Below are positions 7,551 to 11,578 of a stretch of 64,000 nucleotides of DNA, one piece after another. The position numbers were made by a program, and so were the translations under genes. The notes below the pieces were generated by a model. The model saw only the letters and a list, made by a program, of their open reading frames with translations, had not been told where the DNA came from and did not search any database. Source of the DNA: a virus (Duplodnaviria; Heunggongvirae; Uroviricota; Caudoviricetes); the IMG/VR virus record IMGVR_UViG_3300042391_000580. One strand, given 5' to 3'. How positions within the stretch are numbered: position 1 is the first letter of the stretch; every line of letters starts with the position of its first letter.

Positions 7551-8363
7551 ATGAAAAAAGTTTTAGCAGTATTTTTAGTGTTAGTAGTAGCAGTGGGTTT
7601 TACCTCTTGCGAAAGAGTTGCTCCAAACTATTATGGAGTGTTGATGGAAAATTATGGTAAGGATGGCAAGGATGACTATTCTAAACAACAAGGTAGAGTA
7701 TCTACAATTTCTCCGGGGACAGAGTTATTTCAAGTACCGGCATGGGAACAACGTGGTAAGTTTACTAATGATGAGGGACAAGACAGAACTTTACAAGTAA
7801 AAGCAGCAGATAACACAGCCTTTACATCTAAGCCGTTATATTCATATAAAGTAATTCAAACTAAAGTTGTAGATGTAGTATTCCAAAATTCTAGGTTAGG
7901 TTCTGGAGATGATTTTATGAATGCCTTACAAGACAATGTATTGGAGCCAAGAATCTATGATATTATAAAAGAAGCATCAAGAAGTTATACAACAGAGCAA
8001 TTAATGGCTAATGGTGGTTCATTAAGATTTGAGCAATACGTTCAAGATATAGTTACAAAAGAGTTTGAGAAAGCCGGTTTAGAATTAATTAGTTTCAGTT
8101 TAAACTTAGACTTCTCTAATAAAGTAAAAGCTAAGATTGACTCAAGAAACGAGGTAAATACAAATATCTCTGTTTTGGATCAGCAAATTGCAGAACAAAG
8201 AAAACGTAATGAATTGGAAGTTTTAAGAACTGAGCAAAATAAAATTAGAAGTGCCGGTATTACTCCACAAATATTACAAGAACAAGCAATTCGTAAGTGG
8301 AATGGTCATTTACCAACTACTTATGCAGGAGGTGGCTTACCATTTGTTAAGGCAGTAAACTAA
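7551..8363 (+). CDS. lipoprotein (270 aa) with C-terminal coiled-coil; possible SPFH-like
   Basis: lipobox VGFTSC after signal peptide MKKVLAVFLVLVVA. Confidence 0.5.
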   Translation: MKKVLAVFLVLVVAVGFTSCERVAPNYYGVLMENYGKDGKDDYSKQQGRVSTISPGTELFQVPAWEQRGKFTNDEGQDRTLQVKAADNTAFTSKPLYSYKVIQTKVVDVVFQNSRLGSGDDFMNALQDNVLEPRIYDIIKEASRSYTTEQLMANGGSLRFEQYVQDIVTKEFEKAGLELISFSLNLDFSNKVKAKIDSRNEVNTNISVLDQQIAEQRKRNELEVLRTEQNKIRSAGITPQILQEQAIRKWNGHLPTTYAGGGLPFVKAVN

Positions 8364-8901
8364 TAAAAAATAACCTGTACCCCCGAAAAACTCGTATTTA
8401 AAGATAAGCAGGTTAGCTCTTATATAAAGGGGTATTAGAATAAGAGCAAAGGTGGTGTACCCAACCCGAAATGGGTGCTATTGGTCTCTGAAGAAAAGGG
8501 AACGCTTGTGAGTGGCAGTACATAACTCTCAAAAATAGCTAAGCTGTGTAAAGCACCAGATCTGATAAACTGTGTGAAGCTATGGGTTAAACATTGAATA
8601 CCTTTGTAAGAGAACCGTTATCTGCACCTTTTAGGTAGTAGAGAGCATACGTCATACTTCCATAAAGATACTATCAGTAATGGTAGATGTGTTGTTCCCT
8701 TGAGAAAGGAATGGTTAATAAAGAGATTAGACTTAATTGTTTGCTATCTACAACACAAATGAGTTCTCAGCAAGTAGTTATGAGATTCGAGCCTGCAAAG
8801 TTCTTTGAAGTAACTATGTGACCCTACTCTTGGTCCGGCTACGTAAGCTGATGCCGCTTACATGAAAGAGGGTGCTAAATTTTAATTAAAATAAATATAA
8901 A

Positions 8902-9075
8902 ATGAAAAAGATTTTCTTTTTAATGGCTATTATTTTAGCCTTTAGCGTAACAAGTTGTAAACAAGCTAGTGAAGTAAATTCAGATGCAACAACAGATTCA
9001 ACAGCAGTTCAAGTTGATTCAAATGGTGTAGACACAACAAGTGTTGATACTACTGCTTTAGATACAGTTAAATAG
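8902..9075 (+). CDS. small secreted lipoprotein (57 aa, T/D/V-rich) embedded in RNA island
   Basis: MKKIFFLMAIILAFSVTSC lipobox; below track cutoff; own translation. Confidence 0.35.
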   Translation: MKKIFFLMAIILAFSVTSCKQASEVNSDATTDSTAVQVDSNGVDTTSVDTTALDTVK

Positions 9076-9248
9076 TATTTAAGGATCGAGGCTTCTTCCT
9101 TTGAATGAAGCTACGCTACCGAAATGATAAGTGCCCTCACACGAGGGATTTTTAAAGAATGTTTTGGGTATGTTGGAAGGGGAAACAAGCACTGTGATCA
9201 GTGTGGCATAGAGTTGAGAGTCCGGATGTCAAAACTCTTTTAAGTCCT

Positions 9249-9341
9249 TGAGGGTTCGAGTCCCTCTACCTAATCGAAATAGTTTGTTGATGTATTATTG
9301 AATTTTGTTTGGACGGGAGTTCGATTCTCCCCACCTCCACA
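9249..9341 (+). ncRNA. ssrA: candidate tmRNA acceptor piece (T-arm GGGAG-TTCGATT-CTCCC + 3' acceptor strand CACCTCC-A) of a permuted two-piece ssrA
   Basis: close to E. coli tmRNA 3' end (UUUCGGACGCGGGUUCAACUCCCGCCAGCUCCACCA vs UUUGGACGGGAGUUCGAUUCUCCCCACCUCCA); pairs with GGGGGUG at 9437 with G3-U70. Confidence 0.4.
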
Positions 9342-9436
9342 AGAGTTTCCTTGAACTATAAACAAGGTGGTGGAGTCGCTGAGAAATCAGAGACCTAACA
9401 GTTTGAGGGAGCGTTCTGTTTAAAAACGTAACAATA

Positions 9437-9576
9437 GGGGGTGACTGGTTTTGACAGCAATCTAGTAGGTAGTAAGTAGAACTAATTTCAAATTTAAACG
9501 ACAACGTTTACCAACTTGGTGGGGTGCAAAGAATTGCAGCTTAACCACGCCTAGGGAGAGCGACATCTCCCTAACT
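9437..9576 (+). ncRNA. ssrA: candidate tmRNA coding piece: 5' tRNA-like strand GGGGGUGACUGGUUUUGAC, tag-like ORF ending GCA GCU UAA (..RIAA-stop) at 9542-9544, post-stop hairpin TAGGGAGA/TCTCCCTA
   Basis: 5' end resembles tmRNA consensus GGGGNUGAUUCUGGAUUCGAC; tag region shares AAACGAC...GCAGCUUAA with E. coli ANDENYALAA coding sequence; lies downstream of its own T-arm, implying permutation. Confidence 0.4.
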
Positions 9577-9650
9577 GGTCCTATAGCTCATTCGGTTAGA
9601 GCAACTGACTCATAATCAGTAGGTGCTTGGTTCGATTCCAAGTGGGACCA
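9577..9650 (+). tRNA. tRNA-Met (anticodon CAU; elongator type, could alternatively be tRNA-Ile2/lysidine)
   Basis: hand-folded cloverleaf: acceptor GGTCCTA/TGGGACC (one G-U), D-stem GCTC/GAGC, anticodon stem ACTGA/TCAGT with loop CTCATAA, T-stem CTTGG/CCAAG loop TTCGATT, discriminator A; CCA not encoded. Confidence 0.85.
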
Positions 9651-9913
9651 CTTAGCAAGGCATAAACGATAAGGAATACTCGTCACAGGTTTATGTTGAG
9701 TTGCAGACGGGCCGAAATGCTTACGGTTAACAAGGCTTAACTCATAAAGTCTAGAGAGCAAAATCTAACGAGTGACTGATGGAAAGACATCAACATGGGA
9801 AAGTAGCAGATAAGGTCGCCCCTGAACTGTGAGTGGGACTAATGTGACGGTCAATCGTAAAGGCTCAAGGTACGTAACAAGTAGTAGTTGGTTGGAGTAA
9901 GTGACTTAGCATC

Positions 9914-9937
9914 GGGGGTTCGATTCCCCCCTTTTTT
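9914..9937 (+). terminator. terminator closing the RNA island; hairpin mimics a tRNA T-arm
   Basis: GGGGG-TTCGATT-CCCCC followed by C TTTTTT. Confidence 0.5.
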
Positions 9938-9958
9938 ACAAACTAAAAATTATATAAA

Positions 9959-10600: not shown

Positions 10601-11578
10601 ATGAGCATCTTCACAGAAAGAAAAAACTACAAGCCGTTTGAGTACAGCGGTATTACAGACCCCTTAATTAATGCAATGTGGGCCGGACACTGGACTCATA
10701 ATGAGTTCAATTTTTTGAATGACATTCAAGATTACAAAACAAAATTAACAGTAGAAGAACAAGGAGTAGTCAAAAGAGCTATACTACTAACTTCACAAGT
10801 AGAAGTTGCTGTAAAATCTTATTGGTCTAACATTGGGAAGTTACTCCCTAAGCCTGAGATAGCTGACATGGGGGCAGTATTCGGAGGGGTAGAAGTTGTC
10901 CACTCAAAAGCATATGCAGAGATACTATCAAAACTTGGATTGGAAGATCAATTTGAAGATTTGTTCTCAGAGCCGGTTGTTGTTGGGAGAGTGAATTATT
11001 TAACAAAGTATATCAACAAGATATACAAAAATGACCATAAGAATATTTGCTATTCTTTAGTTTTATTTACATTATTCACAGAATATACTGCTTTATTTTC
11101 ACAATTCTATACTATTCTAGGATTTAATAGGTTCAGAGGAGTGCTTAAAGATGTAGCAAATGTAGTGCAATATACTTCGAAAGAGGAAAACTTACATGCA
11201 GAAGGTGGTATTGCCTTACTTAACCAAATTAGAGCAGAGCACCCAGAATTATTTGATGCAGAGTTTGTTGAGAAGATTAGACAAGAAGTACTAGAGGCTT
11301 ACAAAGCTGAGGCAGATTTGATTGACTGGATTCTAGAGGGTTATGAAAATGAGTTTTTATCCCCTAAGATTTTAAAAGGTTATGTACAAATTAGATTAAA
11401 CGATGCCCTAGAGAAAATTGGTATGGGAACTTCTTTTGAGATTGATCCTCAGATTAGGGAAGAAACTCTTTGGATGGAAGAAGAAGTTTATGCAAGTGCT
11501 TTGACAGACTTCTTTCACAAAAAACCTATTGATTATAGTAAAAAAATGAAAACGTATAACGAAGAAGATTTATTTTAA
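10601..11578 (+). CDS. nrdB: ribonucleotide reductase class I small (beta) subunit
   Basis: di-iron ligand ExxH motifs VEVVHSKAYAE and SKEENLHAEG; size and adjacency to alpha subunit. Confidence 0.85.
   Translation: MSIFTERKNYKPFEYSGITDPLINAMWAGHWTHNEFNFLNDIQDYKTKLTVEEQGVVKRAILLTSQVEVAVKSYWSNIGKLLPKPEIADMGAVFGGVEVVHSKAYAEILSKLGLEDQFEDLFSEPVVVGRVNYLTKYINKIYKNDHKNICYSLVLFTLFTEYTALFSQFYTILGFNRFRGVLKDVANVVQYTSKEENLHAEGGIALLNQIRAEHPELFDAEFVEKIRQEVLEAYKAEADLIDWILEGYENEFLSPKILKGYVQIRLNDALEKIGMGTSFEIDPQIREETLWMEEEVYASALTDFFHKKPIDYSKKMKTYNEEDLF

Follow-up and report, generated by a model that had tools for sequence, protein, structure and literature searches.

Comparative sequence evidence for a circularly permuted tmRNA gene among the tRNA-like genes of a marine Flavobacteria-type phage

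The IMG/VR virus record IMGVR_UViG_3300042391_000580 (Caudoviricetes) was analysed as one stretch of 64,000 nucleotides, hereafter called the window. Judged by covariance-model matches and by comparison with relatives, its locus 9275–9576 is a circularly permuted (two-piece) transfer-messenger RNA (tmRNA) gene set among tRNA-like genes of a marine Flavobacteria-type phage. It is very probably a functional, phage-encoded permuted ssrA gene that gives a two-piece tmRNA. An earlier sequence-only reading of the window had proposed such a gene beside tRNA-Met, and its proposal is borne out here by an Rfam match, an ARAGORN call, conservation in relatives, and covariation. All the sequence elements it quoted lie where it placed them, while its P2 helix, its first tag codon and its view of earlier phage examples had to be revised.

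Anatomy of the permuted gene

In a scan of the whole 64-kb window, the Rfam model RF04321 (tmRNA_permuted) scored 64.1 bits at 9282–9544 (+), well above its gathering score of 47 (E = 4.7e-10) and far more than chance would give. The match takes in model positions 1–213 of 213 and runs through the stop codon. ARAGORN independently called a permuted tmRNA with its tRNA domain at 9304–9340 plus 9437–9465. On a single strand, the T-arm/acceptor 3′ half comes first, followed by a 97-nt spacer and then by the 5′ half from 9437:

9275–9339 (+): tmRNA acceptor piece, 65 nt, from the RF04321 match and the ARAGORN tRNA domain
9276–9311, 9315–9331, 9332–9338 and 9339 (+): parts of the acceptor piece, namely P2 3′ strand, T-arm, acceptor 3′ strand and discriminator A9339
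9311–9339 (+): T-arm and acceptor 3′ strand, GGACGGGAG-TTCGATT-CTCCC-CACCTCC-A, written out GGAC-GGGAG-TTCGATT-CTCCC-CACCTCC-A
9340–9436 (+): intervening segment, predicted to be excised, 97 nt
9437–9576 (+): tmRNA coding piece, 140 nt, beginning GGGGGTGACTGGTTTTGAC
9437–9443 and 9455–9489 (+): acceptor 5′ strand and P2 5′ strand of the coding piece, followed by a 10-nt linker, the tag frame and a hairpin
9500 to 9542–9544 (+): tag frame from GAC 9500 to TAA, encoding DNVYQLGGVQRIAA, with the end GCA GCT TAA at 9536–9544
9552–9559 and 9566–9573 (+): helix-5-like post-stop hairpin TAGGGAGA/TCTCCCTA, 8 bp
9577–9651 (+): tRNA-Met (CAT), called by ARAGORN; Rfam tRNA 69.5 bits

The acceptor stem GGGGGTG/CACCTCC forms its 7 bp between the two pieces, as had been proposed, with G9439–T9336 as the G3–U70 pair and A9339 as the discriminator; GGGGGTGACTGGTTTTGAC lies 97 nt downstream of A9339. 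The T-loop TTCGATT is canonical. Also upheld are the frame end GCA GCU UAA, so that the tag ends in AA, and the 8-bp hairpin after the stop (9552–9573), the stem of which co-varies among relatives. The 5′ end of tRNA-Met is found 3 nt beyond this hairpin.

There is no room for the pseudoknots PK1–PK4, because P2 ends (9489) 10 nt short of the resume codon (9500) and the interval from the stop to tRNA-Met holds a single 22-nt hairpin; the product would therefore be a minimal tmRNA. The RF04321 model spans the tRNA domain only (PMC11915505), and the lack of pseudoknots lowers the typicality of the gene, not its RF04321 membership. The standard one-piece family RF00023 was considered for the window and rejected: its sole match (9179–9342) is chimeric, scores 31.9 bits against a threshold of 47 and has non-canonical acceptor pairs.

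Comparative evidence for the tag frame and the helices

Relatives were gathered from IMG/VR by a pattern scan and a neighbour-protein scan, and close relatives numbered only four. A permuted gene is present at the same locus in three sister contigs—L007/L121, which has about 91% DNA identity to the window, L122, and L123—with RF04321 scores of 64.6, 57.3 and 51.1 bits, respectively; ARAGORN does not call the L123 gene. The predicted tags are:

Window: DNVYQLGGVQRIAA
L121: DNVYQLGGVQRRFAA
L122: DNVYQLGGVQLRAVA
L123: DNVYTLGGVQKRFAA

The frame is open in all four genomes and reads DNVYQLGGVQ-RIAA, -RRFAA and -LRAVA, with DNVYTLGGVQKRFAA as the fourth form. The first 10 codons show 4 synonymous changes versus 1 non-synonymous change, and the length differs by a 3-nt in-frame indel. 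Judged by these substitutions, the frame (A)DNVYQLGGVQRIAA-stop evolves like coding sequence. Distant members keep the pattern (G/D)(K/N)V..L....R.A(A/V). The resume context is UAAAC-GAC, in which both the Rfam alignment and ARAGORN on the relatives place the resume codon at GAC 9500, and ARAGORN picks the DNVYQ... frame on L121 and L122. The frame and AA end given by the sequence-only reading thus stand; its start at AAC does not, the resume codon most likely being GAC 9500, one codon later. That reading had further called the IAA end a non-canonical degron, whereas an AA-COOH end is not very non-canonical.

Pairing was counted over eight distinct family members, the two pieces being joined without the spacer and the structure being supplied by us. 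Paired cells amount to 86% of the total, versus 43–62% when the partners are slid, and the covariation score is 0.299 versus at most 0.173 for the slid controls. P2 is a long irregular helix of 9276–9311 with 9455–9489 that ends 10 nt before the resume codon. Its P2a segment (9305–9311 with 9455–9460) is 97.9% paired, with three of the six pairs changed on both sides, and its closing G–C becomes A–T in L123. The T-stem and the acceptor stem are 100% paired, and G3–U70 occurs in 8/8 distinct sequences. In the post-stop hairpin, GGGAG/CTCCC changes to GGGGG/CCCCC while the loop GCGA(C/A)A is kept. The sequence-only reading was to be dropped if a covariance-model match and covariation were lacking; both were looked for and both are present.

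P2 had earlier been drawn differently, as CTACCTA (9266–9272) with TAGGTAG (9466–9472). These strands are complementary but coincidentally so: the coding side stays similar in L122 and L123 (TAGGTAG, TAGGTAA), and the upstream partner is not conserved there, having been swapped for unrelated tRNA-like 3′ ends. Bases 9250–9273 are instead the T-arm and acceptor 3′ strand of a neighbouring tRNA-like element, TLS-1, in which TTGGGTA forms the 5′ strand.

The tRNA-like domain is the best-conserved part of the gene, and its 5′ half is identical to that of host-type tmRNA. Phage tmRNAs consisting of this domain only that inhibit tmRNA have been described, for example as proposed for mycobacteriophage DS6A (PMC4131195, PMC11915505). 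The element might accordingly be a decoy, the domain titrating host SmpB, alanyl-tRNA synthetase (AlaRS) or EF-Tu and blocking host trans-translation, with the tag irrelevant. A decoy needs no frame, yet the frame, the stop, the UAAAC-GAC context and the hairpin are conserved, change in the frame is coding-like, and the tag pattern is retained even in distant members; we consider a decoy highly improbable.

Several points weigh against a working two-piece tmRNA. The acceptor stem is invariant and therefore yields no covariation evidence, and the distal P2 helices are paired in just 66–79% across the family. On the window itself ARAGORN reported 'Tag not identified'; the tag it gave under this flag, DKEYSSQVYVELQTGRNAYG (9668–9730), was rejected, as it lies past tRNA-Met and within a separate RNA module, el3a. 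CAA rather than CCA is encoded after A9339, so CCA must be added afterwards. Searches for a CCA-adding enzyme and for SmpB found no homologue of either in the 64-kb window, which is part of the genome, and the element would therefore rely wholly on host factors. PK1 is important in E. coli tmRNA, yet replaceable by a hairpin; its loss is unusual for a tmRNA, and that such a minimal form would function is an assumption.

The missing pseudoknots and the unencoded CCA would also suit a decaying, non-functional relic, that is, a tmRNA scrambled by tRNA-like and homing-endonuclease insertions and still recognised by covariance models. The surrounding island is highly mosaic, with an HNH open reading frame (ORF) and a different tRNA-Met in L007 and with TLS elements swapped between relatives, and in the L123 gene the T-loop is shorter and the tRNA-like domain differs at several positions. 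Set against this are a tag frame uninterrupted in all four genomes, its changes being chiefly synonymous plus one in-frame indel, compensatory changes in P2a and in the post-stop hairpin, and the same minimal architecture in many unrelated phage contigs and one cultured phage. A relic is improbable on this evidence, and a functional two-piece tmRNA remains the reading we favour.

Flanking tRNA-like elements and the ends of the gene

The permuted gene and tRNA-Met are part of a larger RNA island on the same strand:

9072–9148 (+): leader with hairpin CCCTCACACGAGGG (9134–9147), homologous to the leader of the one-piece tmRNA of contig L134
9164–9274 (+): tRNA-like element TLS-1, 111 nt, with the 7-bp stem TTGGGTA/TACCTAA, a D-like arm and the T-arm GAGGG-TTCGAGT-CCCTC
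9651–9796 (+): pseudoknotted RNA module el3a, 146 nt, a neighbour in the RNA island that lies outside the tmRNA
9797–9938 (+): tRNA-like element TLS-2, 141 nt, with the stem GGGAAAG/CTTTTTT and the T-arm GGGGG-TTCGATT-CCCCC

The leader aligns over 77 nt, at 93.5% identity, with L134 11364–11440, which stops 4 nt before the 5′ end of the L134 tmRNA, and the leader hairpin is listed as terminator-like by the terminator scan. Both TLS elements combine a good acceptor stem and T-arm with an aberrant, enlarged anticodon or variable region. In TLS-1 it is the anticodon region that is aberrant; the minimum-free-energy fold retains the acceptor stem and T-arm, relaxed ARAGORN reads a tRNA with an 'intron', and a G-to-A change in L007 turns a G–U pair into A–U.

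The 3′ end of TLS-1 abuts the tmRNA acceptor piece. Other tRNA-like elements end at the same junction in L122 and L123, just before CGAAAT, the first bases common to the acceptor pieces, and every family member within a tRNA cluster has a tRNA or tRNA-like 3′ end directly 5′ of its acceptor piece. Counted on the sequences, 45 nt separate this 3′ end from the T-loop in the window, L122, L123, L227 and Maribacter phage Panino; L229, L103 and L092 have 46 nt here, and L228 has 40 nt. On the other side, a tRNA begins 3–5 nt after the hairpin in the window, L121, L122, L123, L227 and Panino, despite differing tRNA sequences, and stand-alone members have a hairpin followed by a T-run (e.g. L231, L233, L230). 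From the nearly constant spacing of the flanking tRNAs we infer that tRNA-processing enzymes make all four ends, and the abutting tRNA or tRNA-like genes probably set both outer ends of the tmRNA gene.

TLS-2 is also read as a tRNA by relaxed ARAGORN; covariation among the window, L121, L122 and L123 is seen in both its acceptor stem and its T stem, and its T-arm with the T-run was scored as the island terminator by the terminator scan. The TLS elements recall the stable RNAs of the T4 tRNA cluster. Related 'AGTCAGG...CCTGACTA' elements are strewn over the same locus in L125, L127, L135, L123 and L007. In addition, L007 (= L121) carries at 8630–8200 (−), corresponding to window 9635–9652, an ORF of about 140 aa with HNH-like and Cys-rich motifs between the tmRNA and el3a. 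The insertion comes with a different tRNA-Met sequence, as if a homing-endonuclease cassette had taken the place of the tRNA.

The el3a module was found in 22 IMG/VR viral contigs. It always starts, with CTTAGCAAGG, immediately after the 3′ end of a tRNA or tRNA-like element, and what comes next is in most cases a further tRNA-like element or the 5′ end of a tmRNA. Copies lie at L121 6251–6399, L122 11864–12012, L123 11392–11541 and L127 11282–11431 and in L236–L256. Its pair cells are 99.2% paired versus 22–40% in slid controls, with eight pairs changed on both sides; it contains no ORF and had no Rfam match in the window scans. Possibly, el3a represents a novel family of phage small RNAs that tRNA processing sets free, and it may turn out to be the more original lead. 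We also considered whether 9652–9937 is what remains of the 3′ portion of a one-piece ancestor of the tmRNA. This was rejected: the similarity is limited to the T-arm, and the interval resolves into el3a and TLS-2, both of which are also present elsewhere without a tmRNA.

Short minus-strand ORFs overlie the tmRNA and tRNA genes, at 9295–9504 (−) and 9588–9761 (−) in the window and at 1555–1704 (−) in L235 (Panino), where the ORF is PANI_CDS0067, annotated as a hypothetical protein. These ORFs over structured RNA are most likely spurious gene calls.

Comparison with known two-piece tmRNAs

Permuted tmRNA genes are textbook knowledge in Alphaproteobacteria, some Betaproteobacteria and marine cyanobacteria; Keiler et al. 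reportedly described, in 2000, a two-piece tmRNA from a permuted ssrA gene in Caulobacter. With the bacterial two-piece tmRNAs the window gene shares the order with the acceptor piece first, the acceptor stem formed in trans with G3–U70, the T-arm, P2, and a tag ending in AA. Unlike them, it has no pseudoknot space and no encoded CCA, is phage-borne and set among tRNA-like genes, and the 5′ half of its tRNA-like domain is of the Bacteroidota one-piece type. The alpha, beta and cyanobacterial permuted tmRNAs all fall under RF04321, into which the former RF01849, RF01850 and RF01851 were merged (PMC11915505).

The sequence-only reading knew of no phage-borne permuted example, which does not hold: 53 two-piece tmRNA calls have been made in phage genomes, including OM43 phage Melnitz, pelagimyophages and cyanophages (Buchholz et al., 2022; PMC9004378), and the tmRNA database lists 79 phage tmRNAs. 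Melnitz resembles the window in carrying a permuted ssrA in a marine phage of lytic type, in a form differing from the host's own. In contrast to the window gene, alpha-like viral genes mostly encode CCA and have the 5′ end GGGGGTGACTAGGTTTCGAC, tags like ANDAQFALAA and a PK1-sized region, and some of those in phages are associated with a glutamine riboswitch. Permuted genes in viruses are common in IMG/VR, where a single alpha-like permuted pattern matches 66 contigs. Going by these sequence features, the window gene is of a family distinct from the alpha-like phage two-piece tmRNAs.

One member of the same family is annotated as a tmRNA in a cultured phage, namely Panino (GenBank PP540027, 27557–27889; host Maribacter halichondriae, Flavobacteriaceae), and ARAGORN calls it permuted. 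The Panino gene shares the architecture of the window gene: in Panino, tRNA-Asp is followed by a 45-nt P2 strand, the T-arm, CACCTCCA-CTA, a spacer and then GGGGGTGATTGGATTTGAC, after which come the tag GKVMNVSFAPTVRQFA, a hairpin with an ACGACA loop, and tRNA-Thr. The spacer is 36 nt rather than 97 nt, the tag and flanking tRNAs differ, and Panino is an unrelated 77-kb phage. Its publication mentions 'one tmRNA (SsrA) gene' without remark on the permuted form. Apart from Panino, blastn of the locus against GenBank phages returned tRNA-Met and T-arm-sized matches only.

As a side observation on the alpha-like viral genes, at least 8 of 44 distinct spacers (L004, L015, L025, L028, L033, L038, L051 and L054) encode a peptide of 22–27 aa with a strongly hydrophobic C-terminal half, with the TGA stop one base before the tmRNA 5′ GGGGG. 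Four of the peptide ORFs have AAGGAG or AAGGAT upstream, a clear ribosome-binding site. We read them, as predicted from their sequences, as small membrane-peptide genes within the excised precursor segment.

One-piece and two-piece forms at one locus

The locus, 0.2–1.2 kb downstream of an SPFH-like gene, varies among the closest relatives. A permuted tmRNA is present in the window, L121, L122 and L123, and a one-piece tmRNA above the Rfam threshold (RF00023) in L125, L126, L127, L128, L129, L133 and L134. In L124, L130, L136, L138 and L183, some of which have tRNA arrays, neither Rfam nor ARAGORN finds a tmRNA at the locus. L135 is borderline, with a one-piece-type tmRNA-like sequence that neither program calls. 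The sister one-piece tmRNAs share with the window gene an identical first 21 nt, the lack of an encoded CCA and the leader, and that of L134 matches it at 32/33 nt of the T-arm and acceptor region. They differ in their standard order, in a body of 330–400 nt with a long pseudoknot-sized region, and in long and different tags such as ANAQIEANMNKVFSLLREEVAVAA.

By local blastn, the first half of the spacer (9340–9397) is common to L122 and L123 at 93–98% identity, and its last 38 nt (9397–9434) are 97% identical to the one-piece-type leader of L135 (11262–11299). A simple tandem duplication as the origin of the spacer was rejected: the last 38 nt do fit the L135 leader, but the first half matches no one-piece trailer. 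The sequence evidence for tandem duplication is suggestive only. The spacer has a fold z-score of −2.4. Its motif UGGUGGAG (9367–9374), preceded by a hairpin, is complementary to the mature 3′ end CUCCACCA, which could reflect pairing in the precursor or a remnant of rearrangement. A hairpin with UGGUGGAU, resembling the spacer hairpin and UGGUGGAG, lies just after the tag in the one-piece tmRNA bodies of L125 (~8047–8060) and L126 (~11417–11432).

P2 and the tag are closest to the permuted genes of unrelated phage-like contigs (L087, L072, L107, L117 and L227–L234) and of Panino, all of which lack an encoded CCA. On present sequences this is a distinct phage-borne permuted family that moves between phages. 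Together with the window and L121–L123, these are the only places in which the minimal family has been found so far, all of them phage-like contigs. We tentatively raise, at somewhat less than even probability, an independent origin of the two-piece form: the minimal family, pseudoknot-free and CCA-less, would have arisen in Bacteroidota phages from a one-piece tmRNA of Bacteroidota type rather than having been imported from the alpha, beta or cyanobacterial lineages, and its outer ends would have come to be set by tRNA-like 'punctuation'.

The phage and its host

The window encodes the replication genes exonuclease, ribonucleotide reductase, DnaB and family-A DNA polymerase, as well as very large virion proteins. 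The only cultured relatives of the virion proteins are in Cellulophaga phages phi4:1 and phi17:2 (Lightbulbvirus), with 50.6% identity over 635 aa, and the gene order is similar to that of these phages. The 5′ 19-mer of the tmRNA recurs unchanged at the 5′ end of one-piece tmRNAs encoded on the chromosomes of many Bacteroidota. Among them are the marine Flavobacteriaceae Wenyingzhuangia and Ochrovirga, with the tag GEESFAMAA. Because of this identity the host is likely one of the Bacteroidota, and it probably belongs to the Flavobacteriia; such a host-type 5′ end fits the use of host SmpB and AlaRS. Bacteroidota genomes hold 24,380 standard versus 48 permuted tmRNA genes (tmRNA database; PMC11915505 supplement).

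Integration at tmRNA genes is common, and fragments of ssrA are often present in phages (PMC9004378, PMC11590407); several of the 66 viral contigs with the alpha pattern may hold host-derived ssrA. The window sequence might on that ground be taken for fragments of a phage attachment site (attP), a temperate-phage copy of the host ssrA 3′ end that restores the gene on integration. We find this barely credible: both halves of the tRNA-like domain, the tag frame and P2 are present, far beyond an attP copy, and the mRNA-like part is unlike the host tags GEESFAMAA and GENNYALAA. Moreover, the flanking genes are exonucleases, an SPFH-like protein and ribonucleotide reductase, with no integrase among them, and the nearest cultured relatives are phi4:1 and phi17:2.

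Rfam finds no tmRNA across the phi4:1 genome. ARAGORN does report a 'tmRNA*' in the phi4:1 tRNA cluster (L068 39919–40580; record 89919–90580), and the call is listed as 'Permuted' in a published supplementary table (PMC9004378). It spans several tRNAs, has no Rfam support and is probably a false positive. The wrong window tag and this unsupported call imply that published counts of phage two-piece tmRNAs based on ARAGORN only contain errors.

Proposed working of the RNA

In the working we propose for the functional two-piece tmRNA, a single precursor transcript would span the whole RNA island (9.08–9.94 kb), and the tRNA-processing enzymes of the host would cut it. The coding piece would owe both of its ends to RNase P: the 5′ end at G9437 and, through cleavage at tRNA-Met, the 3′ end at 9576, as tRNA-Met starts 3 nt past the hairpin. 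Processing of the 3′ end of TLS-1 would form the 5′ end of the acceptor piece at 9275, and trimming past A9339 followed by the CCA-adding enzyme would finish its 3′ end. The acceptor piece would thereby mature to about 68 nt (its 65 nt and the added CCA) and the coding piece to about 140 nt, the 5′ tail of the acceptor piece pairing solely with the P2 5′ strand and the tag and hairpin forming a free 3′ tail.

Charging would fall to host AlaRS, and delivery to stalled ribosomes to host SmpB and EF-Tu. Translation would there restart at GAC 9500 and terminate at UAA, the product ending ...RIAA being sent to host proteases. Processing, charging, SmpB binding and trans-translation make up a proposed function that appears reasonable. 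The benefit to the phage would probably be extra ribosome rescue while mRNA is degraded in infection; a changed fate of the tagged proteins is a possible further benefit.

Significance

Phage-borne two-piece tmRNA is already known, and the window gene is a further example, counted as a member of the known kind because standard tools flag it above threshold. Its moderately novel aspects are its minimal build, its tRNA-flanked ends and the occurrence of one-piece and two-piece genes at a shared locus of sister phages. By this evidence, a two-piece tmRNA that looks able to work can be carried by phages of Flavobacteria-type hosts, which themselves have the one-piece RNA. With its tRNA-like domain, one long helix, tag and one hairpin, the window gene offers a natural minimal tmRNA for structural and functional work. 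Related phages with either form at the same locus make the origin of permuted genes testable by comparison and, if the independent origin is true, the sister phages would form a before-and-after series for tmRNA permutation.

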